Positions 35,511-60,794 of a DNA stretch of 64,000 nt are shown here, in pieces. Numbering within the stretch: the first letter of the stretch is position 1; each line of letters opens with the position of its first letter. Source of the stretch: an uncultured Candidatus Saccharibacteria bacterium (GTDB lineage: Bacteria; Patescibacteriota; Minisyncoccia; Phycocordibacterales; UBA9973); contig CAZGOI010000002.1 of NCBI GenBank assembly GCA_964527185.1, positions 197,532-261,531 of the forward strand, given 5' to 3'. Both the position numbers and the translations under genes were made by a program. The notes under the pieces were generated by a model. It was given only the letters and a program-made list of their open reading frames with translations. It did no database searches and had not been told where the DNA came from.

Positions 35511-36278
35511 TTATTTTAGCAGATTTTCGAGTATCTCGAGTTCGGCTTTTGAGTTTGGCTGAAAGGCCTCAAGGGTATTTTCTATAGGAACCCCGATTAC
35601 ATTTTTGCCTTGTTTAAAAGCATGACCTATGAGGTCGGTTAGATAGTATTCGCCTTGGGTGTTTTCGTTTTTTAAGCTATCTATATTTTGCCAGAGCCAA
35701 TCAGAATCGAAAACATAGAGCGCGGGGTTAACTTCGGTAATTTTTTTTTCATTTTCATTTGCATCTTTGAATTCTACATTTCGAACAACATTATTATTCT
35801 CGTCTCTAATAATTCTACCAAAATTAACGAGCCCAACCCTCCAATCAGAAAAATCTGGTAATAAAACTGTACCTATTGTTATTGTTGGTCTACTCTGATT
35901 GTGGACATTGATTATCTTTTCTATAGTGTCCTTTGAGACAAGTGGCTGATCTGTTGACAAAACCATTATAGTTTTGTGATTACCAGATAGTGAATTTTTT
36001 GCTGATAAAACAGCGTGGCCAGTACCGAGTTGCTCTACTTGGTGAGCGTAATTGTGGTCATCACCCAGTACTTCGAAAATTCTTTCTTTTTTATGACCAA
36101 CAACTATCACGGGCTTGGTTGGAAGATTGAGAGTCGAAAGTGTATCGAGTATATGTTTCAAAAATGGCTTACCCCTAAGCATAGCAAGGGCTTTGGGTTC
36201 ATCAGATCCCATTCTTTTCCCCTTCCCAGCCGCCAGTATTATGATCTGTGTATTTTCCATACCAAAATATATTAGCAA
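35511..36278 (-). CDS. sugar-phosphate nucleotidyltransferase (GlmU N-domain-like)
   Basis: '[19 protein letters not shown]' nucleotidyltransferase signature. Confidence 0.65.
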
Positions 36279-36342
36279 AATAAAAACTATTTACAATATT
36301 AAAAGTCCTAGACTGCGCGAGGCAACCTAAGACTTTAAAAAA

Positions 36343-37026
36343 TTAGAATGCAATTCCGAGCGAGAGGGATGGGAGTACACTATTCCCGAAATCATAAATA
36401 TAGATTGGGTCTTTACCTACTTTGTTGTTGTAGGTTATACCCAAAGCGCTGGTCAAAAATATATTTTTCCAACTTTTTGGCCGGTATAAAACCCGAGCTT
36501 GTACATTGAATTGGTCTTGATATAACAATATTTCATTACTATTTAGGAAGTTTTTTTCTTTACTTTCCCTTGCAAAGATATCTATGCCTAACTCGAAATT
36601 TTGGTTTATAACCCGCATCAATTCTCCGTAGACAAGATATATAGACTTGTCTTCTTTATTTAAAGAGCGCAGGTGTTTGAAATAAAGATACGATTTGACG
36701 CCGCTTATTTCCCCACTTACAAAGAGCAAAGAATAAGAGTAGTAAAATCTGCCTCGCTCTTCAAATGCTACCCCGGGCATGACAGCCAATCTGGCCATGT
36801 CTTCATATTTTTTTGATACTATTGGCCCAGCCGAGAAGCTGTATATGCCGTCTTCGTCGAACCGTAGCCGTAGGTCGGATGCGAGGGTCGTGGTAAAAAA
36901 ATTCGCGAAACCATAGCCATTTTTTTGTTTTGAAGTTTTGCCTTCGGCCATTCCGCTAAAATTTTCCTGGCTTATGGCTAGATTGAGCCACAAGAGGTGT
37001 ATCAGAGAGAGGGTAAATTTTTTCAT
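36343..37026 (-). CDS. hypothetical secreted protein with signal peptide
   Basis: N-terminal 'MKKFTLSLIHLLWLNLAISQ' signal; alternating beta-like pattern; C-terminal '...LGIAF'. Confidence 0.35.
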   Translation of the reverse strand: MKKFTLSLIHLLWLNLAISQENFSGMAEGKTSKQKNGYGFANFFTTTLASDLRLRFDEDGIYSFSAGPIVSKKYEDMARLAVMPGVAFEERGRFYYSYSLLFVSGEISGVKSYLYFKHLRSLNKEDKSIYLVYGELMRVINQNFELGIDIFARESKEKNFLNSNEILLYQDQFNVQARVLYRPKSWKNIFLTSALGITYNNKVGKDPIYIYDFGNSVLPSLSLGIAF

Positions 37027-37130
37027 AATGTAAAGTTTTTATTTCTCTAAATTATGAACTTTGTGCAAGTATTGTCAATAGAAATCTTTTTGTGTTTTCG
37101 GTTAAAAATGTTATACTCGTTTCCACTATT

Positions 37131-37191
37131 GGCCCTATCGTCCCCGCCAGCCCTCCCGTCGGTCGGGAGCGGGCTGGTAACGGTTAGGACA
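37131..37191 (+). other. duplicated 5' half of tRNA-Glu (acceptor 5' strand plus D-arm) interrupted by a 35-nt GC-rich hairpin
   Basis: GGCCCTATCGTC (37131-37142) and TAACGGTTAGGACA (37178-37191) are identical to positions 1-26 of the tRNA-Glu at 37438; the insert CCCGCCAGCCCTCCCGTCGGTCGGGAGCGGGCTGG is self-complementary. Confidence 0.6.
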
Positions 37192-37204
37192 AGCAAATTT
37201 ATTT

Positions 37205-37459
37205 ATGTACTTCGTCTATGTTTTAAAAAGTAAAAAGGATCAAAGACTTTACTATGGTTCTACAGACAATCTTGAAAGAAGACTAGGAGAGCATAATAAA
37301 GGTAGAGTTAGGTCAACTAAATCAAGAATTCCTTTTGAATTGGAATATTTTGAGAAAGTTGATAGTATAATAGATGCGCGGAAGAAAGAAAGATATTTTA
37401 AAACAGGTTTTGGTAGGAAATACATAAAAAATAAACTGGCCCTATCGTCTAACGGTTAG
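37205..37459 (+). CDS. small GIY-YIG nuclease-domain protein
   Basis: 'YFVYVLKSKKDQRLYYGSTDNLERRLGEHNKG' gives the GIY...YIG...R...E...N motifs; 84 aa; the 3' end overlaps tRNA-Glu. Confidence 0.8.
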   Translation: MYFVYVLKSKKDQRLYYGSTDNLERRLGEHNKGRVRSTKSRIPFELEYFEKVDSIIDARKKERYFKTGFGRKYIKNKLALSSNG

Positions 37460-37509
37460 GACATCGGCTTTTCAAGCCGGTAATCCGGGTTCGATTCCCG
37501 GTAGGGTCA
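37438..37509 (+). tRNA. tRNA-Glu (anticodon TTC)
   Basis: Hand fold: acceptor GGCCCTA/TAGGGTC, anticodon stem TCGGC/GCCGG with loop TTTTCAA, T-arm CCGGG-TTCGATT-CCCGG. Confidence 0.85.
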
Positions 37510-37669
37510 CAAAAAGAAAAATCCAGTATCACTACTGGCATAATTATTATTTTTTTCATGTTATACACTATTTAAGATAATTTGTCAAGAGATATAATCA
37601 ATTATTGTTAAGTGGGTTTGATATGTTTTCTCGTAAAAAATTTGGGCAAATGCTAAAATAAACCCACAA

Positions 37670-38341
37670 ATGAAATCTCCTATATTATTTCATACCTCTT
37701 ATAATCCCAAACAAGAAGCAATCGAATATCTAGCTATGGTTTTGAAAGAAAATTTAACTGCTGGAAAAAAGGTTTTATGGTTTGTGCCTGGTGGCTCTGG
37801 GGTTAAGGTCGCATCCGAAGTTTCCGTCTTGCTTGATGACATGCCGTGTCAAAACCTCTCGATTGCTCTTACCGATGAGCGGTATGGGGAAATTGGTCAT
37901 AAAGATTCAAATTGGTTAAAATTAGAGCAAGCTGGTTTTAAAATTAAGAATGCAAAGCTCTACCCTACTCTTTACGGTAAAGACGTAGGCGAGACGATCA
38001 AAGATTTTAATTTTTGTGTAGAAAAAATTTTGGGCGAGTCTGACTTTACCATCGGTCTCTTTGGAATTGGCGCCGATGGTCACACCGCCGGTATAATGCC
38101 ACAAAGCGTTGTGGTTAATTCAACTGATTTTGTTTCTGGTTATCAAGCTAAAGATTATCTCCGGGTTACCATAACGCCAAAAGCTATCGCAGAGATTGAT
38201 GAAGCAGTACTGTACGCAGACGATAAGGCAAAAATAAAAGCATTAAAAGATCTAGAGAGCGATATCCCCTACGAAATAGAGCCAGCTCAAGCATTAAAAC
38301 AAGCAGGGGGGCTTATTATTTTTAATAAGAAATATAGATAA
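37670..38341 (+). CDS. pgl: 6-phosphogluconolactonase
   Basis: 'LFGIGADGHTAGIMP' motif of the Pgl/NagB family. Confidence 0.75.
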   Translation: MKSPILFHTSYNPKQEAIEYLAMVLKENLTAGKKVLWFVPGGSGVKVASEVSVLLDDMPCQNLSIALTDERYGEIGHKDSNWLKLEQAGFKIKNAKLYPTLYGKDVGETIKDFNFCVEKILGESDFTIGLFGIGADGHTAGIMPQSVVVNSTDFVSGYQAKDYLRVTITPKAIAEIDEAVLYADDKAKIKALKDLESDIPYEIEPAQALKQAGGLIIFNKKYR

Positions 38342-39562
38342 ATGAAAAAATCTACAACCCTTATCATCTTTGGCATAACCGGCGACTTGGCGACGCGCAA
38401 ACTCCTGCCAGCCATAAACGAAATTTTGAAAAAAGAAATTTTGCCAGAGCATTTCAAGATCGTCGGCATTAGCCGAAAGAAGAACGTAGATGTCGGTAAA
38501 CTATTGCGAAATATTGAGGACCAAGAAAAAATACGCGAACATCTTTCTATATTTTCAATTTCTTCAGAAGAAGACAGCGAGTATGACCGCCTCGATAAAT
38601 ATTTGACCGAAATCGAATCAAACAACGCAGAGGGTCTGCAACGGCTCTTTTACCTAGCAGTTCCACCCCAAGCGTTGCTAGAGATTGTTAGCAAACTCGG
38701 CTTTTCTGGCATTTCAAAAAAAGTCGAGACCAAGATAATGCTCGAAAAGCCTTTTGGTGTTGATTTAGAATCTGCCAGAGGGCTTTCAAAAGAGATTGGT
38801 ACATATTTCAAAGAAAGCCAAGTCTATCGCATAGATCACTACCTGGCCAAAGAAATGGCGCAAAATATTATCGTATTTCGAAACGACAATTCCCTATTCA
38901 AACATACTTGGAATAATAATTTTATTGAAAAAATCGAAATCATCGCAAGCGAAACTATCGGTATCGAGGGCCGGACAAAATTCTATGAAGAAACAGGTGC
39001 ATTTCGCGACCTGATTGTGAGCCACTTATTCGAGTTTGTAGCTATTACTCTCATGGATATCAGAGATGAAGAATCAAATATGCAAAAAATGAGGCTCGGA
39101 GCCCTGAAAAATCTACACCTTAAATCGGCCGGAAACATTTATGAAGTTGTCAAAAGGGGTCAATACAGAAAATATAGAGATGAGGTAGGCAATAGTGAAA
39201 GCACAACCGAGACATATGTAAACTTAAGTCTAGAATCGAGCGATAAAAGATGGCAAGGTGTACCGATAAGGCTTGTTACTGGTAAGTGTCTGAAGGAGAA
39301 AATAACACAAATTAAAATTTATAAAAAAGATAAAACTGCCGAACCCAGTGAAATAATTTTTGACTATTTAAAATCTGGTGGAGATGCAAATGAAGATTAT
39401 AAACGGATATTGCACGATGCGATAAATGATAATCATGATTTATTTATTTCAAATGACGAGGTAGTTGAATCTTGGCGGATTGTCGCGCCAATTCAAGAGG
39501 CTTGGAAGAAATCAAGTGACGATCTATTTATCTACGAAGAAGGAAGTGATTATAATCTATAA
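38342..39562 (+). CDS. zwf: glucose-6-phosphate dehydrogenase (short form)
   Basis: NADP site 'IIFGITGDLATRKLLPAI'; active-site 'RIDHYLAKE'; 1-nt gap from pgl. Confidence 0.85.
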   Translation: MKKSTTLIIFGITGDLATRKLLPAINEILKKEILPEHFKIVGISRKKNVDVGKLLRNIEDQEKIREHLSIFSISSEEDSEYDRLDKYLTEIESNNAEGLQRLFYLAVPPQALLEIVSKLGFSGISKKVETKIMLEKPFGVDLESARGLSKEIGTYFKESQVYRIDHYLAKEMAQNIIVFRNDNSLFKHTWNNNFIEKIEIIASETIGIEGRTKFYEETGAFRDLIVSHLFEFVAITLMDIRDEESNMQKMRLGALKNLHLKSAGNIYEVVKRGQYRKYRDEVGNSESTTETYVNLSLESSDKRWQGVPIRLVTGKCLKEKITQIKIYKKDKTAEPSEIIFDYLKSGGDANEDYKRILHDAINDNHDLFISNDEVVESWRIVAPIQEAWKKSSDDLFIYEEGSDYNL

Positions 39563-39818
39563 AAAAGTCCTCCTGTGGAAACAGGAGGGCTCGGTTAATA
39601 TTTTGAGGATGAGTTCCCCAAAACAACAAAAACCACCACATATATAAAGAACTTTATTTGTGGGCACGCACCCGTTTTAGCCAACCTGTTTTAGATGCGT
39701 ACCCTTTTACCAAAACCAACTGGTGAGATATTACAATGTTTATCAAAAATATGCAAGGTTTAAATTGTTGATAATATAAAATAAATTCTATATAATACCG
39801 CAGACAAGGCACTTTTAG

Positions 39819-39905
39819 GGAAGCGTGGCTGAGTGGTTGAAGGCACCGCTCTCGAAAAGCGGCAGGGGCGAAAGTCTCTCGTGAGTTCAAATCTCACCGC
39901 TTCCG
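39819..39905 (+). tRNA. tRNA-Ser (anticodon CGA) with a long variable arm
   Basis: Acceptor GGAAGCG/CGCTTCC, D-loop GAGTGGTTGAA, anticodon stem CCGCT/AGCGG with loop CTCGAAA, long variable arm, T-arm GTGAG-TTCAAAT-CTCAC. Confidence 0.8.
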
Positions 39906-39907
39906 CA

Positions 39908-40001
39908 AGTAATGTAAACATTACGAGGACAGATTTGAAGGTCGGAGCGCGGCGGCGAGAGACGGGGTCGCGAAATTTTTCAGAAGAAAAATATTTGTGA
40001 A
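39908..40001 (+). repeat. conserved structured about 100-nt element, copy 1, flanked by 20-nt direct repeats of the tRNA-Ser 3' end
   Basis: CAAATCTCACCGCTTCCGCA occurs at 39888-39907 and 40002-40021. The insert has a perfect 6-bp hairpin GTAATG-TAAA-CATTAC and the core GGGGTCGCGAAATTTTTCAGAAGAAAAATATTTGTGA, which is shared with copy 2 at 57461. Confidence 0.5.
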
Positions 40002-40027
40002 CAAATCTCACCGCTTCCGCAGATTAT

Positions 40028-40100
40028 GCGCGGTTAGCTCAGTTGGTAGAGCGTCCCCTTGACGTGGGGAAGGCCACAGGTTCGAATCCTGTATCGCGCA
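40028..40100 (+). tRNA. tRNA-Val (anticodon GAC)
   Basis: Acceptor GCGCGGT/ATCGCGC, D-arm GCTC-AGTTGGTA-GAGC, anticodon stem GTCCC/GGGGA? with loop CTTGACG, T-arm CAGG-TTCGAAT-CCTG. Confidence 0.8.
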
Positions 40101-40286
40101 CAAAATAGCTTTATATTTCAAGCCTATTTGGCTTGACTTTTTGTTATATTTGTGATATGATTGAACCAGAAAATTGTACTTTGAAAGTAGTTGTTTTATG
40201 TTTGCTTTGAGGACAACTCTCGCCTTCCCTACCAAGGTTAGACTTGTTCTCAAAGTAAACAAATTTTTTTTAAAAAATAAAACAAC

Positions 40287-41198
40287 ATGAATATGCAAAA
40301 CACATCACAATCGGGTGATATAAAAATGCCCAAAACAAAAACGCCTCTGGGTGTTCGACTTTTACTCTTATTGATTATTACTATCTTGTATTTTGGTATG
40401 TTTATCTTTGTTGACTGGGTGATCTGTCTTATTGTAGTCTCTGTAATATTAGCTGCTACAAACACGCTGTATTCAGTGACTACACCGGCATATCATTGTG
40501 CAATTGTATTAAACGTTTTAACCCGTGAAAAAAGAGTTGTTTATGAAGGATTCAGTCTTTTACTGCCATGGGAAAAATTACACAAGGTTATTGATCTTCG
40601 TTTTGAGCTTGCAAAAGAATGTATGAAAGAATTTCCTACTCTTGATGCGAAAATGATTGCGGAATATATTTTCACAATTCGTCCCTGCATTTCAATCGGA
40701 AATCCTGATGAAAACATTTTGCGATTTGCAAGTTATGAACCGACTGTTATTCAGAAAGGGAGTGAAGGATTCTACAGCCAAAAATTTTCCGACTATTATG
40801 GGAAAAATAGTGCAAAAGACCTTATAGACAAGGAAGCAATATGCAATTCATTATTCGGAGATGATGGCACAGCAAAAGCTGAAGAGGATATTATAAAAGC
40901 TAGATATGGTATTGAATCAGCTGTAAGATTAGTGAGCTCTAAATGGGATCAAGAAACCCAGAAGTTCAGAGATCTAATATCCGGTGCTAAATCTTTTGAT
41001 GAAGCCATTGGAATCCTGATGGGTAAAGATGGTAAAAAGATGTCGAAAGATCAGGCAATAAGAGTAGCAAAATTGATGAATTTCCCTGAAAATGTGAGGG
41101 AAGATATGTATGACGTAAAAATCGATGGCCTGAGCAACTTACGACACCTTAATGTCGTGGGTGGACTAGGTAATAAAAAACAAGGAGGTATGAAATGA
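40287..41198 (+). CDS. hypothetical membrane protein (two N-terminal TM; possible SPFH/band-7-like ectodomain)
   Basis: TM helices at residues about 20-60; weak resemblance of 'IVLNVLTREKRVVYEGFSLLLPWEKLHKVIDLR' to the start of the SPFH domain. Confidence 0.3.
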   Translation: MNMQNTSQSGDIKMPKTKTPLGVRLLLLLIITILYFGMFIFVDWVICLIVVSVILAATNTLYSVTTPAYHCAIVLNVLTREKRVVYEGFSLLLPWEKLHKVIDLRFELAKECMKEFPTLDAKMIAEYIFTIRPCISIGNPDENILRFASYEPTVIQKGSEGFYSQKFSDYYGKNSAKDLIDKEAICNSLFGDDGTAKAEEDIIKARYGIESAVRLVSSKWDQETQKFRDLISGAKSFDEAIGILMGKDGKKMSKDQAIRVAKLMNFPENVREDMYDVKIDGLSNLRHLNVVGGLGNKKQGGMK

Positions 41199-57528: not shown

Positions 57529-57532
57529 GCAT

Positions 57533-57604
57533 TCCGGAGTAGCTCAGCGGTAGAGCAGTCGCCTGTTAAGCGATTGGTCGCAGGTTCGATCCCTGCCTCC
57601 GGAG
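57533..57604 (+). tRNA. tRNA-Asn (anticodon GTT) with a U1:A72 acceptor pair; CC of CCA encoded
   Basis: Acceptor TCCGGAG/CTCCGGA, D-arm GCTC-AGCGGTA-GAGC, anticodon stem GTCGC/GCGAT with loop CTGTTAA, T-arm GCAGG-TTCGATC-CCTGC, discriminator G then CC. Confidence 0.8.
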
Positions 57605-58205
57605 CCCTATAGGTTGGTTAGAAGTTGCAAGTATCTTGTCAAAGGGAGAACGCATTGAAAACACTAGGTTTTTTCCTTCTAACTGACAGTTCTGAAGTAG
57701 AAAATTAAGAAGTTGCCTTTTTTCAGGCACTTCAGAACTCTTGAAAATCTCAAGAGCTCTTTTTGCTATGTTTAGTATTGTATTTGCAATCAAATAGAAC
57801 TCTTCATCTGCTTCAGAGTGAATACTCATATCTGTGAGAATAGCACTTTGTCTTTCTTTGAACTCTTTCAATTTTCTGTCATACATTTCATCAGTAATTC
57901 GCCTCATACGATATACCATATTCGCCTATAATATTCTCAGCTAGTTTAGTATATTTATTATTTGTTGCAGTTTGAGCTTCTCGTTTTAGTTTCTCATATC
58001 TATCAGAAATTGAGTAAACCATAGGCAGTTTTCTGAAATTAGTTTCTTTATTTTTCTCTTTTTTCAGTAGTTTTATTTTATTAACAAATGGTTTGTTTTT
58101 CAATAATTCACTAAGATAAGAAACCATTTTTGTATTGGCTTTTGATTTTTTGCCGATAAAGTAATCTGGGTATTCAATATCAGATATATCTTTCATATTA
58201 TTCAC
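57566..58205 (-). pseudogene. two overlapping out-of-frame ORFs resembling the C-terminal region of a large serine recombinase (remnant); the 3' end reads antisense through tRNA-Asn
   Basis: ORFs 57891-58205 and 57566-57919 overlap by 29 nt in different frames. The distal C-terminus 'KRQLLNFLLQNCQLEGKNLVFSMRSPF' resembles the LSR C-terminal motif, and the last 13 codons are the reverse complement of the tRNA. No catalytic N-terminal domain is present. Confidence 0.3.
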
Positions 58206-58283
58206 TTTACTTTAGTTTACAATACTTAGCAACATTTTGTTGTATAAATACGCAAATTAAGTTATAATTCAGATACAAAAATT

Positions 58284-58751
58284 ATGGATAAAAATCATCA
58301 ATTATTAGCATATTTAGCTAAAGAACATCCTTCAGCTTCTATCACAGTATTGATGAAGCTCTCTTATTTAGTTGATCTTGTAAGCGTAAAAAAATTAGGT
58401 CAAAAGATTTCTTCTTTTGATTATATTCGTTATAGTTATGGTCCATTTGCTCAAGAGGTTTATGGTATTGTTGAGGACCTAACTCTTAAAAAAATACTCG
58501 CTACAAAAAATGATTATGCAGGTGGTAGTGTTGAATATATAACTTATACATTTACTAATTCTGAAGATTTTTCTTTTGATAAATTGTCAGAAGAAGAGGT
58601 TTCTGTAATAAATGAAATGATGTCTGAACTAAAGGGCTATGGTGCTAAAACTTTAACTGAAATAGCATACAAAACTAAACCTATGGTTGGTCTAGGTGCA
58701 ACGCTTGGTGGGACTGAGGGTCTTTTCAAAAAACTTGATCTAGCTCAATAA
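58284..58751 (+). CDS. Panacea (DUF4065)-domain protein, putative antitoxin-like
   Basis: 'SITVLMKLSYLVDLVSVKKLGQKISSFDYIRYSYGPFAQEVYGIV' matches the Panacea/SocA-GepA-like core (KLxKLxY...W..GPV...Y pattern). Confidence 0.5.
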   Translation: MDKNHQLLAYLAKEHPSASITVLMKLSYLVDLVSVKKLGQKISSFDYIRYSYGPFAQEVYGIVEDLTLKKILATKNDYAGGSVEYITYTFTNSEDFSFDKLSEEEVSVINEMMSELKGYGAKTLTEIAYKTKPMVGLGATLGGTEGLFKKLDLAQ

Positions 58752-58754
58752 TAT

Positions 58755-59261
58755 ATGCAGATGCCTGAAGCGGTTACTTTGATGTATTATCATCCTAGAA
58801 ATACATTTGCTGATAAAACTTCAGAAGAAGAAAGAACGGGTGTAATCAAAAAGAAATATAAGTTGTTATTCAAACAGCATAAAGAATTAGGTCTTTATGT
58901 GTTTTTTGTTTTGACTAGTAGTCCTTCTGCTTGTGTGAAGGAAAGAATGTTTTCTATAAATAAAACAGATTGGGAAGAAAGATTAGGAAACAGCTTAGAT
59001 GCTGATTGCTCATACACTGATATTCAAAGCCATTCAGTAGTTCACGATAAAAGCGAGGTTTTAGAAAAAGCCAGTAATCCTAAAATAGGTTTTTCTTATG
59101 TGGCTAAACTATATCAATCAAAGTTCAATGAATTATCCACTGCAATAGAAAACTATCTTTCTGCTACAACAGCAAAGACGGATATTGAAAAAAGAGATTT
59201 CTTAAAAAGTATTGTTCTTGAAGATAAAGCTACAGATTTTATCAATAAGTTTAAGGTTTAG
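58755..59261 (+). CDS. hypothetical protein, candidate toxin partner of the Panacea-domain gene
   Basis: 168 aa; starts 4 nt after the Panacea ORF stop; no recognisable motif. Confidence 0.35.
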   Translation: MQMPEAVTLMYYHPRNTFADKTSEEERTGVIKKKYKLLFKQHKELGLYVFFVLTSSPSACVKERMFSINKTDWEERLGNSLDADCSYTDIQSHSVVHDKSEVLEKASNPKIGFSYVAKLYQSKFNELSTAIENYLSATTAKTDIEKRDFLKSIVLEDKATDFINKFKV

Positions 59262-59340
59262 CTTCCAGTTTGCTGTATCTTGGAAAGAAGGTCATTATTT
59301 GGCTAAAACCTAATTCTTTTTGTATTTCTTTCCAGTTTAT

Positions 59341-59401
59341 AGTTCTGAACTCGGACAATACAGGGAGCCAACTTGACTTTTATATATTTTTATGCTACTA
59401 T
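59341..59401 (+). promoter_or_regulatory. operator-like inverted repeat plus sigma-70-type promoter (module copy 1)
   Basis: IR AGTTC-T-GAACT (59341-59351); -35 TTGACT (59373-59378), 17-nt spacer, -10 TACTAT (59396-59401). Confidence 0.45.
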
Positions 59402-59517
59402 ACGAATGTAGCGGCTCTTTGATATTAATGGTTGTTTATGATTGATTTTGTTGGGTTTTCCCTACACCTTTATAGGACTAGAGAAAACTCAATAATTCAA
59501 AAACTAAAACAATTAAA

Positions 59518-59976
59518 ATGAAAAAAATTCTTGATGAAGAAATCGTAATAAGCAATATCCAATACATCTATCCTGTATTACCTACAGGAGACGAATTAAG
59601 GATTGCACTAGGTGCACTATCTCTGACCAATCAAAAATCGAACGTCAATGATGATTGCCATCCAATGATAGTTGGGTGGAACGAAAACTCCGCAGTCGAT
59701 TTTGCTGACTTTCAATGGTGGATTAAGTGCCTCATTGAAGAAAGCCATTTTATTATTGGGAAGAAGATTATCACTTTTGCAGAAAAATTAGATCTGTACC
59801 CTGAGGAAGCTTGTGGAGAACCTTCTGTCACTTTAAAATTCAAAGACGGTACAATGTTCAGAATTACACAAAGAGACATCAGCAAGCCGATTGAAGTTTG
59901 CGTACGAGGCGATGGCCCAAATTTCCTGAAGATGAAAATTAAGGAATACGGGTACACTCCTATTCCTTTCGATTAA
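59518..59976 (+). CDS. hypothetical protein (152 aa), cassette 1
   Basis: ORF preceded by the module promoter and leader, followed by a terminator hairpin. Confidence 0.4.
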   Translation: MKKILDEEIVISNIQYIYPVLPTGDELRIALGALSLTNQKSNVNDDCHPMIVGWNENSAVDFADFQWWIKCLIEESHFIIGKKIITFAEKLDLYPEEACGEPSVTLKFKDGTMFRITQRDISKPIEVCVRGDGPNFLKMKIKEYGYTPIPFD

Positions 59977-60001
59977 ATTCATCTAAAATAGAAAATAATT
60001 T

Positions 60002-60031
60002 AAGTTCCTTGCCAAAACAAGGAACTTTTTA
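60002..60031 (+). terminator. rho-independent terminator after cassette 1
   Basis: AAGTTCCTTG-CCAAAA-CAAGGAACTT followed by TTTTT. Confidence 0.65.
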
Positions 60032-60072
60032 TATACATAGCTGATATAAAGTAAAAATGTTAATATTAATTA

Positions 60073-60600
60073 ATGGAATATTTGGATATCTGTGATGAAA
60101 AAGGAAATTTGACAGGAATCAAAGCTTTGAAAAAAGAAGCTCATGAGAAAGGCCTCTGGCATAGATCAGTTCATATCTGGATTTTAAACTCAAAAAATGA
60201 ATTATTAGTGCAAAAAAGATCTCCGTTAATGGATAACCATCCTAATGAGTGGGATATTTCAGCTGCAGGGCATGTATCAGCTGGAGAAGATAACATAACT
60301 TCTGCCTTACGAGAAACCGAAGAAGAACTTGGTTTAAAACTTTCTCCTGGAAATTTTACTCTCATTGGGACTATTCAACAAAGGTCTGCGCGTGAAGGAT
60401 ATATAAATAATGAAGTAAACCCTATCTATGTTGTTAAAATGGATTTAGATCTAAGTAATATAAAAAAGCAGGTAGAAGAAGTTTCAGAAGTAAAATTTAT
60501 TCCTTATCTTGAATTGAAAAAACTTATTGATAATAAAGACCCTTATTTTGTTAAACACCCTAGTGAGTACGAACTTCTTTTCAGTTATTTATCACAATAA
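60073..60600 (+). CDS. NUDIX hydrolase
   Basis: Nudix box 'GHVSAGEDNITSALRETEEELGL' (G-x5-E-x7-REUxEExGU). Confidence 0.8.
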   Translation: MEYLDICDEKGNLTGIKALKKEAHEKGLWHRSVHIWILNSKNELLVQKRSPLMDNHPNEWDISAAGHVSAGEDNITSALRETEEELGLKLSPGNFTLIGTIQQRSAREGYINNEVNPIYVVKMDLDLSNIKKQVEEVSEVKFIPYLELKKLIDNKDPYFVKHPSEYELLFSYLSQ

Positions 60601-60633
60601 AGCCATTCTAACTTCATCCCAGGTTCGGAGCAA

Positions 60634-60670
60634 TAAACAGAAACGGCACCTTTTGGTGCCTTTTCTGTTT
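60634..60670 (+). terminator. rho-independent terminator after the NUDIX gene
   Basis: AAACAGAAACGGCACC-TTTT-GGTGCCTTTTCTGTTT. Confidence 0.75.
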
Positions 60671-60770
60671 ATCTAACTCCGGGGTAAGAAAGCAAACTAC
60701 TTTGCTTTCGACAGGGATCGAAGGATTGATAATGTTTTATTTATAAAACTATCAATCACGCGCCGTGGGC

Positions 60771-60792
60771 GAGATTCCCTGCCTCCGGAGCC
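60771..60792 (+). repeat. direct repeat of the tRNA-Asn 3' end (att-like)
   Basis: CCCTGCCTCCGGAGCC (60777-60792) is identical to tRNA-Asn 57591-57606; the upstream GAGATTC resembles the T-loop. Confidence 0.6.
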
Positions 60793-60794
60793 AG

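Follow-up and report, generated by a model that had tools for sequence, protein, structure and literature searches.

Why should an intact glutamate transfer RNA (tRNA) gene be preceded by a broken copy of its own 5′ end and by a tiny nuclease gene that runs into it? We addressed this question for a tRNA-Glu locus in a 64-kb stretch of an uncultured Candidatus Saccharibacteria genome (64,000 nucleotides (nt), hereafter the window), for which the original prediction, made without database searches, had proposed that a GIY-YIG homing-type element inserted into, and regenerated, a tRNA gene. Our comparative analysis indicates that the locus is probably a selfish cassette, consisting of a minimal GIY-YIG gene and a cognate GC-rich palindrome, which occupies the 5′ end of tRNA-Glu(UUC) and whose target tRNA has been regenerated.

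Anatomy of the tRNA-Glu locus and its nuclease gene

ARAGORN places an intact tRNA-Glu(UUC) at positions 37438-37510, as the original prediction had expected, and the Rfam tRNA model recovers it with 65.5 bits. Its 5′ part recurs upstream as two exact direct repeats, one of 13 nt (37130-37142 = 37437-37449) comprising tRNA-Glu nt 1-12 together with one leader T, and one of 14 nt (37178-37191 = 37450-37463) comprising nt 13-26. The 35 nt between these blocks (37143-37177) are GC-rich and fold into a predicted hairpin with the stems CCAGCCC/GGGCTGG and TCCCG/CGGGA. Since the longest other exact matches to tRNA-Glu in the 64 kb, on both strands, measure only 10-11 nt, the collinear 12- and 14-nt blocks lying ~300 nt upstream of the gene are not a chance resemblance. 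Exact repeats and fold thus agree with the predicted duplication of tRNA-Glu nt 1-26 at 37131-37191, split by a 35-nt hairpin. The start codon of a GIY-YIG open reading frame (ORF; 37205-37459) follows 27 nt after the hairpin end; this is the only ORF between the repeats, and the Pfam domains found there are all GIY-YIG-type. It encodes 84 amino acids (aa) and overlaps the tRNA by 22 nt (37438-37459). Hairpin and ORF are single-copy within the window, and the locus was also found in a second public assembly record. The features of the unit are collected in Table 1.

Table 1. Features of the tRNA-Glu locus, in window coordinates
Feature	Positions	Strand	Evidence
Candidate native tRNA-Glu promoter: -35-like TTTGTG (37089-37094), 17-nt spacer, extended -10 TGTTATACT (37109-37117), 13 nt before the half-copy	37089..37117	+	Read from sequence
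A_up, exact copy of tRNA-Glu nt 1-12 (acceptor 5′ strand to D-stem)	37131..37142	+	Exact repeat; position behind promoter as in ORF-less tRNA-Glu genes
H, 35-nt palindromic hairpin, conserved cis-element of the family, presumed nuclease binding/cut site	37143..37177	.	Fold, conservation, covariation
B_up, exact copy of tRNA-Glu nt 13-26 (remainder of D-arm)	37178..37191	+	Exact repeat
AT-rich spacer, sequence unconserved	37192..37204	+	Comparison of Glu-clade loci
ORF, bare GIY-YIG nuclease domain, 84 aa; final 7 codons and stop = tRNA nt 1-22	37205..37459	+	Pfam, conservation, model
Intact tRNA-Glu(UUC), functional copy	37438..37510	+	ARAGORN, Rfam, 73/73 identity to other loci
Terminator-like hairpin, probably the end of the transcription unit	37523..37538	+	Consensus scan only (weak)

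The Pfam GIY-YIG profile (PF01541) matches residues 1-72 with 56.9 bits against a cut-off of 22.6 (E=2.7e-15), which together with the ORF call bears out the small GIY-YIG gene overlapping tRNA-Glu that had been predicted. The domain spans the entire 84-aa protein with no extra domain, and the last 7 aa are tRNA-derived. Residues Y5, Y16, G18, R26, N31 and E62 are invariant in 30 relatives. An AlphaFold model (predicted local distance difference test, pLDDT, 93.6) shows the element order beta-beta-alpha-alpha-beta-alpha-alpha; its closest folds are UPF0213, the Slx1 nuclease domain and I-TevI, the Slx1 match having a query-normalised TM-score of 0.65-0.67 and a root-mean-square deviation of 2.1 Å over 72 aligned columns. 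Searches with the family profile likewise returned UPF0213/YhbQ-like proteins as the nearest solved relatives (EF2693, E=5.3e-8; BH0048, E=3.4e-7), and the NCBIfam profile 'group I intron endonuclease' scored 19.6 bits, below its cut-off of 56. In pairwise comparisons of eight Glu-linked ORFs, the ratio of nonsynonymous to synonymous substitution rates (dN/dS) was 0.07-0.24 and the proportion of synonymous differences (pS) 0.48-0.88, near saturation. The ORF is under purifying selection, and given the low dN/dS and the near-saturated synonymous sites, the protein is therefore functional and its lineages are old.

Clustered at 50% identity, the hits of a profile search form 15,466 clusters with E<=0.001 and 3,537 with E<=1e-10. 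Homologues are named Paceibacteria, Nomurabacteria or Patescibacteria, which places the host in the Patescibacteria (CPR). Many homologues end in ...LALSSNG or ...GPIV, which is the tRNA-Glu 5′ end translated in two frames. N-terminal extensions of 20-50 aa are frequent among family proteins in the databases (P0011, P0015, P0046 and many others); these are an annotation artefact, in which the gene caller reads through the GC-rich hairpin and the half-tRNA. If the locus is indeed a cassette of the kind we favour, cassettes of this sort would account for many of the pseudo-tRNA fragments in annotated Patescibacteria genomes, and for the spurious N-terminal 'extensions' that small GIY-YIG proteins carry there.

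The original prediction had also entertained a split or permuted tRNA, and a broader version of this idea, including an intron-containing gene, would require the upstream half for the mature tRNA. In its favour, nt 1 is the precise start of the upstream copy, which could base-pair with the downstream tRNA's 3′ half. We nonetheless regard this as extremely improbable because a contiguous canonical tRNA is present at 37438-37510; moreover, ORF-less genes have an identical tRNA, the upstream copy decays in some lineages, and an Rfam scan of 36000-41000 (E<=1) assigned the half-copy and hairpin to no intron or other RNA family.

Recurrence of the split half-copy and its palindrome

Scanning species-representative genomes, we confirmed 488 relatives and retrieved 80 loci for comparison (individual loci are cited by their L numbers). 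The cassette design recurs beside many tRNAs in Patescibacteria and some other phyla. At least 60 of these 80 loci carry a co-oriented tRNA or transfer-messenger RNA (tmRNA) gene just 3′ of the ORF: in 50 the distance from the ORF end to a co-oriented tRNA is between -40 and +250 nt, in most cases no more than ~120 nt, in three further loci a tmRNA adjoins the ORF, and others adjoin group I intron-bearing or contig-truncated tRNAs. Among the 14 closest relatives (60-83% identity), tRNA-Glu is found downstream in 13, and in the fourteenth (L012) the contig end cuts the locus with the tRNA-Glu 5′ end still visible. More distant relatives precede His, Thr, Lys, Asn, Gln, Phe, Pro, Met, Val, Arg or Gly tRNAs. 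This bears on a housekeeping role, which the original prediction had considered for a YhbQ-like protein always neighbouring tRNA-Glu: the nearest solved relatives are UPF0213/YhbQ-like, but tRNA-Glu is not an obligatory neighbour, and there are signs of both gain and loss of the gene.

In at least 30 loci, the 5′ part of the ORF's own downstream tRNA is copied 60-120 nt upstream of the ORF, the tRNA identities concerned being Glu, Thr, Lys, Asn, Gln, His, Val, Arg, Phe, Pro and Met. These copies nearly always start at nt 1, end anywhere from nt 12 to 38, and are split in the D-arm (nt 5 to 23) by a GC-rich palindrome of 20-80 nt. Because the split design recurs in at least 30 independent loci, the split half-copy cannot be ascribed to chance, and what had originally been taken for an oddity of this locus is the rule for the family.

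The palindrome arms are conserved across tRNA types (CCCGCCCGC...GCGGGCGGG), with a Glu-clade variant, CCCGCC[A/T]GC..., that shows compensatory stem changes; one stem pair covaries (AU in 6, CG in 5, UA in 2). Between the window and L002, 34 of the 35 hairpin nt are identical despite an ORF synonymous pS of 0.61. The hairpin is the conserved cis-module of the family rather than an incidental insert. Its placement varies: in relatives the hairpin stands upstream or downstream of the ORF, on both sides of it, or around it, and within the Glu clade its junction falls at nt 5/6 (L003, L005, L014), 12/13 (the window and seven others), 15/16 (L015) or 21/22 (L009). The hairpin is present twice in L008, and both orientations are found at one site in L057 and at nt 12/13 in the Glu clade. 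We considered a fixed-polarity rule, whereby hairpin orientation predicts the side of the intact copy; it held for the Bacteroidota loci L066 versus L054, failed in Patescibacteria (L057 and the Glu clade), and was abandoned.

Such variability would also be expected had the locus arisen by two unrelated events, namely a partial tandem duplication of the tRNA 5′ end around a captured ORF, followed by the arrival of a palindrome resembling a miniature inverted-repeat transposable element in the dead copy, with no functional pairing between the two. Both orientations of the hairpin are seen, its position takes many values and some loci have it twice; ORFs that are ~80% identical can differ in inner hairpin sequence; and hairpin loops can hold unrelated cargo, as in L043 and L057. 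However, nearly all units with a duplicated tRNA part have the hairpin, and no hairpin-free duplicate was seen among them, nor was the hairpin found elsewhere in the 64-kb window. Conservation of the outer arms extends throughout the ORF family, the two components are tied together where the hairpin encloses the ORF, and the Ssn precedent discussed below also couples a nuclease with a hairpin. On this evidence we judge the two-event account very unlikely.

The hairpin-split 5′ copy is not the only topology. In an ORF-then-hairpin form, the hairpin adjoins +1 of tRNA-Lys or tmRNA, and its terminal GGG replaces the 5′ end of the RNA. In an ORF-inside-palindrome form, the arms serve as terminal inverted repeats; such units cleanly interrupt conserved motifs in GxxExxY, four-helix-bundle and AlbA_2-like genes, and in three genomes one sits at the GFIGS motif of an NAD-epimerase, with a duplicated 5′ gene fragment upstream and the full gene downstream. 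Bacteroidota carry both the 5′ form (L066) and a mirrored form (L054, in tandem, and L060), in which the full tRNA is followed by the ORF and then by a hairpin-split 3′ tRNA fragment. The theme common to these arrangements is a nuclease-plus-palindrome module landing in conserved, often highly expressed genes, and at essential targets (tRNAs, and NAD-epimerase in three loci) the partial duplication leaves an intact gene.

Several loci show further peculiarities. In L022, L036 and L047, the GIY-YIG ORF and hairpin stand upstream of the tmRNA gene with the hairpin end exactly at tmRNA +1, and the insertion apparently lies between smpB (called by eye from the C-terminal sequence of the upstream ORF) and ssrA. 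In L043 (1730-2000), a complete tRNA-Gly lies between long inverted arms (CCCAGCACCAGGGCAGTCCGA / TCGGACTGCCCTGGTGCTGGG), and these arms interrupt a second tRNA-Gly copy downstream of the GIY-YIG ORF, so that the loop carries a replacement tRNA. Unit-adjacent tRNA genes of Patescibacteria in L071 (1854-2090), L034 and L078 have long anticodon-loop insertions and are missed by ARAGORN; the insertion in L071 is a group I intron (Rfam, 90 bits). A hairpin-ORF-hairpin unit without a tRNA is found in L048 (700-1500), beside an ORF that by eye resembles a reverse transcriptase; its source metagenome-assembled genome (MAG) is labelled Methanosarcinaceae and is probably mis-binned.

Gain, loss and a possible route of insertion

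Sites without the ORF were sought by a metagenome DNA-pattern scan for a promoter followed by an intact tRNA-Glu 5′ end, in which 85 stretches matched and 80 loci were analysed. None of these 80 metagenomic loci has an ORF in front of tRNA-Glu, and 10 carry a tRNA identical to that of the window, so the comparison with ORF-less loci envisaged in the original prediction could be made. At full length, the window tRNA-Glu is identical (73/73) to those of the ORF-less L096, L113, L146 and L147 and of the ORF-bearing L011. Most of the 80 ORF-less genes share the layout TTTGCA, 17 nt, TGTTATnAT and 8-14 nt to tRNA +1. In the window the same layout precedes the half-copy, as it also does in L002, L003, L005, L012 and L014, and this resemblance to ORF-less genes is consistent with the gene having originally begun at the half-copy. 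A simple sigma-70 scan did not call the promoter at 37089..37117. The region upstream of the half-copy (37018-37108) shows weak direct similarity to that upstream of pgl (37551-37639), which we attribute to a shared promoter consensus (TTTTTTCAT..TGTTATAC) and not to a larger duplication.

There is evidence of both gain and loss of units. Two different GIY-YIG ORFs are stacked in successive units before one tRNA-Lys in L042; L075 holds a tandem array of identical units, and L057 a second unit without an ORF. ORFs ~80% identical in DNA can be paired with different tRNAs (Thr/Lys, Lys/Arg, Met/Lys), the local duplicate matching the tRNA in each case, and window-like ORFs are found at both tRNA-Glu(UUC) and tRNA-Glu(CUC). 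As for loss, among the 80 ORF-less loci L116 and L150, whose flanks are 89-90% identical to those of the filled locus L004, retain only the last ~27 nt of the ORF together with pseudo-tRNA copies, and L152 has lost the ORF but still shows a half-copy with two hairpins; upstream of the half-copy in L011 lies a remnant of an ORF tail; and the half-copies of L007 and L013 have diverged from their tRNAs. In L096, whose tRNA-Glu is identical to the window's and lacks an upstream ORF, a 50%-identical GIY-YIG ORF lies ~160-393 nt downstream of the tRNA. For the window itself, no close genome is available for comparison, since the best match of the neighbouring 6-phosphogluconolactonase is only 54-55% identical.

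One pair of loci raises the further prospect that the element can drive the replacement of a tRNA gene body. The upstream flanks of L003 and the ORF-less L132 are 94% identical, but their tRNAs differ at 8 positions, and the L003 tRNA(UUC) equals the tRNA(CUC) of L004 and L006 except for anticodon base 34. This suggests, without proving it, that the tRNA body travelled with the unit, and the tRNA-Glu of L003 may reflect a gene replacement followed by an anticodon shift, both linked to the element.

The family is chromosomal and not viral: tblastn searches of 50,697 phage records and 72,556 plasmids gave no family match, and viral contigs yielded 1 match in 2.9 million. Overall, the insertion and tRNA regeneration at the heart of the original prediction are supported by local copies at many tRNAs, variable junctions, stacked units, remnants and ORF-less sites, whereas homing in the strict sense, with cleavage of an empty allele, is a step that we only infer.

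These same observations bear on a more conservative possibility, that the ORF is a domesticated host gene, for instance one controlling incoming single-stranded DNA (ssDNA), with the half-tRNA and hairpin forming a regulatory leader matched to the tRNA and inherited vertically. In favour of this are the strong purifying selection on the ORF and the constancy of the hairpin and of the tRNA segments beside it, in contrast to the diverging spacers and synonymous sites. The ORF is also always co-oriented with, and tightly adjoining, the tRNA, and a host role in controlling incoming ssDNA has been proposed for Neisseria SsnA (PMC11893778). Yet hairpin position and copy end vary between close relatives, stacked units carry two different ORFs, ORF-less remnants occur alongside the 80 sites without the ORF, copies have decayed in L007 and L013, and some family members simply interrupt protein genes. 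We therefore consider domestication an unlikely explanation, and favour a selfish cassette.

For such a cassette, the following course of events can be proposed. The half-tRNA at 37131-37191 would be where the gene originally began, with the native promoter still in front of it and the hairpin breaking it at nt 12/13, and the complete tRNA would have been regenerated from local target sequence directly behind the ORF, so that the host retains an essential tRNA. Local templating of the duplication is indicated by perfect matches to tRNAs with different acceptor stems. A single transcript from the tRNA promoter would comprise the hairpin leader, the ORF and the tRNA, read-through being suggested by the lack of a terminator after the hairpin and by the overlap of ORF and tRNA; RNase P would then release the tRNA from this transcript. 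In the Glu clade, such a cut would remove the stop codon of the ORF and may thereby limit nuclease production. By analogy with Ssn proteins and free-standing homing endonucleases, the nuclease may bind the hairpin in ssDNA and nick beside it, or nick hairpin-prone tRNA DNA; its action on the hairpin is proposed because the Ssn family is the closest described system. Repair of the break by recombination-dependent copying could place the unit in tRNA genes that share the 5′/D-arm, duplicating the 5′ part of the target, and after fixation the ORF would decay or be deleted, leaving pseudo-tRNA fragments.

Neither classical homing, nor a Campbell-type circle, nor cut-and-paste accounts for all features. 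Two more specific schemes were set aside. A circle with 'ends-in' integration, cut at the hairpin, fits the topology, but classical gap repair would erase the hairpin. A carried-arm model, in which pieces of a donor tRNA are brought along, is hard to reconcile with more than 10 tRNA types that differ in their acceptor stems and yet are each matched perfectly by the local copy. The decayed copies in L007 and L013 resemble old local duplicates.

Several points weigh against a selfish cassette, beginning with the evidence itself, which is wholly comparative and mostly MAG-derived. No near-identical copies were found at different sites, and with best cross-site pairs at ~80% identity and one copy in the window, very recent movement is not supported. 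Long-term purifying selection on the ORF is also compatible with a host-beneficial gene. The majority of upstream copies have remained perfect, whereas synonymous sites in the ORFs are nearly saturated, and this combination requires frequent re-insertion, gene conversion from the adjacent tRNA, or selection for matching arms. The presence of the hairpin in either orientation at the same site runs contrary to a simple polar mechanism. The ORF lies outside the hairpin, with no conserved element termini around it, a layout that simple cut-and-paste or classical homing do not predict. Finally, the published Ssn hairpin consensus has no match at these loci, as detailed below.

If a selfish cassette is nevertheless the right reading, many Ssn-type nucleases would belong to tiny selfish cassettes that colonise tRNA and tmRNA 5′ ends and are expressed from their promoters, and the locus would offer a testable system in which a bare nuclease domain and one hairpin move and regenerate their target. 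Paired nuclease and hairpin specificities would also be of interest as ssDNA tools.

Relation to known systems and other tRNA repeats in the window

The closest described system is the Ssn family (NTS/SRM hairpin repeats; CDD cd10448). Ssn proteins are single-domain GIY-YIG nucleases; they recognise a hairpin repeat flanking their gene and cleave ssDNA a few nt to its 5′ side (Chenal et al. 2025, PMC11893778). Their genes are typically hairpin-flanked, and the authors remark on an 'IS-like' hairpin-gene-hairpin layout, expect lineage-specific hairpin variants, and state that the role of Ssn outside Neisseria is unknown; tRNA is not mentioned in the text of that paper (PMC11893778). Our family resembles Ssn in its single GIY-YIG domain of about 80-110 aa without a separate DNA-binding domain, in a 20-50-nt hairpin-forming inverted repeat accompanying the gene on one or both sides, and in the apparent co-variation of hairpin and protein between lineages. 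Unlike in Ssn, however, the hairpin here lies inside a duplicated tRNA, tmRNA or protein-gene fragment, the ORF would be served by the tRNA promoter, and the hairpin is not dispersed in hundreds of copies (one copy in the 64 kb). The SRM consensus HGTCWY N0-2 YYVSBRH N0-5 WNVSBRG N0-2 RNCYNB had no match in the window, and none at a distance of up to 200 nt from the ORF in 81 loci; a PDB search with the family profile returned no SsnA structure.

Free-standing homing endonucleases provide a second parallel, exemplified by phage T4 SegB, a GIY-YIG enzyme encoded in a tRNA gene cluster (PMC2330249). Common to SegB-type systems and our family are a GIY-YIG gene between or next to tRNA genes, presence/absence polymorphism and a possible co-conversion of the neighbouring tRNA (L003 versus L132); as with homing endonucleases generally, alleles with and without the gene occur at a conserved target (80 ORF-less tRNA-Glu loci; L004 versus L116/L150). 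In contrast to Seg proteins and I-TevI, which combine a linker with a DNA-binding domain, the 84-aa protein is a catalytic domain alone; those enzymes come without a hairpin module or target duplication, and our family is chromosomal in Patescibacteria instead of phage-borne.

Free-standing endonuclease ORFs in fungal mitochondrial atp6, cox and nad genes bring or leave a duplicated terminal piece of the host gene. The likeness lies in insertion at the end of an essential gene and a displaced fragment beside the intact copy, whereas the organellar ORFs reside in mitochondrial protein genes, usually at the 3′ end, and encode multi-domain enzymes with no known hairpin. Among structural relatives, UPF0213/YhbQ and the nuclease domain of Slx1, a structure-specific nuclease, stand nearest, but these have no reported hairpin or tRNA linkage, and Slx1 depends on its partner Slx4.

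Integrative elements that target tRNAs and leave attL/attR repeats share with our locus the tRNA target and a partial duplication that preserves a functional copy. They prompt a further explanation, in which the repeat is an attachment (att)-type scar of an integrase element and the GIY-YIG ORF its leftover cargo. Partial tRNA duplications are the usual signature of such elements, and the same window has an att-like repeat at tRNA-Asn. We give this explanation almost no credence: the unit is only ~300 nt and has no tyrosine or serine recombinase in or beside it, the same tiny unit recurs at more than 10 tRNA identities, and most loci duplicate the 5′ end of the tRNA, duplication of the 3′ end being confined to two in Bacteroidota, with one repeat interrupted by the hairpin and with varying length and junctions.

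Comparison with the insertion sequences IS200/IS605 and with repetitive extragenic palindromes and their associated transposases (REP/RAYT) likewise shows both sides. Here too, a small nuclease gene is tied to palindromic hairpins, and there is no short target-site duplication, as seen in the clean ORF-inside-palindrome junctions. By contrast, those systems rely on an HUH/Y1 transposase, covalent intermediates and two subterminal hairpins, whereas our units have a hydrolytic GIY-YIG domain, a single palindrome, long target-derived duplications at essential genes and, according to Pfam, no HUH transposase.

By analogy, then, the locus seems to combine an Ssn-like nuclease-hairpin pair with the logic of tRNA-targeting integrative elements and free-standing homing endonucleases. 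A full-text literature search, in which subscription journals are incompletely covered, brought up no account of a GIY-YIG ORF accompanied by a hairpin-split copy of the tRNA that it targets. More speculatively, the units might represent an unrecognised class of mobile elements, which would need no more than a hydrolytic, single-domain GIY-YIG ssDNA nuclease and one palindrome to enter genes that are highly transcribed and hairpin-prone (tRNA, tmRNA, conserved protein motifs) while copying local target sequence; we think this broader proposal rather doubtful. Under it, the choice of target could be governed by the target-derived segments on either side of the hairpin, serving as homology or guide arms; the result would be a naturally reprogrammable, DNA-structure-guided insertion system, and the activity of Ssn-type nucleases outside Neisseria would be explained.

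Two further tRNA genes in the window are associated with repeats of their own. The last ~18 nt of tRNA-Asn (57532-57607) are repeated at 60776-60793, and this att-like repeat bounds a ~3.2-kb islet (57532-60793), in which we identified by eye a serine-recombinase-like C-terminal fragment (57566-57919, minus strand) overlapping the tRNA 3′ end, a SocA/Panacea-like ORF (58284-58751) and a Nudix-like ORF (60073-60600). At 39819-40021, the 3′ 20 nt of tRNA-Ser(CGA) (CAAATCTCACCGCTTCCGCA) are repeated 96 nt downstream, just before tRNA-Val, and may be the scar of an excised or deleted insertion.

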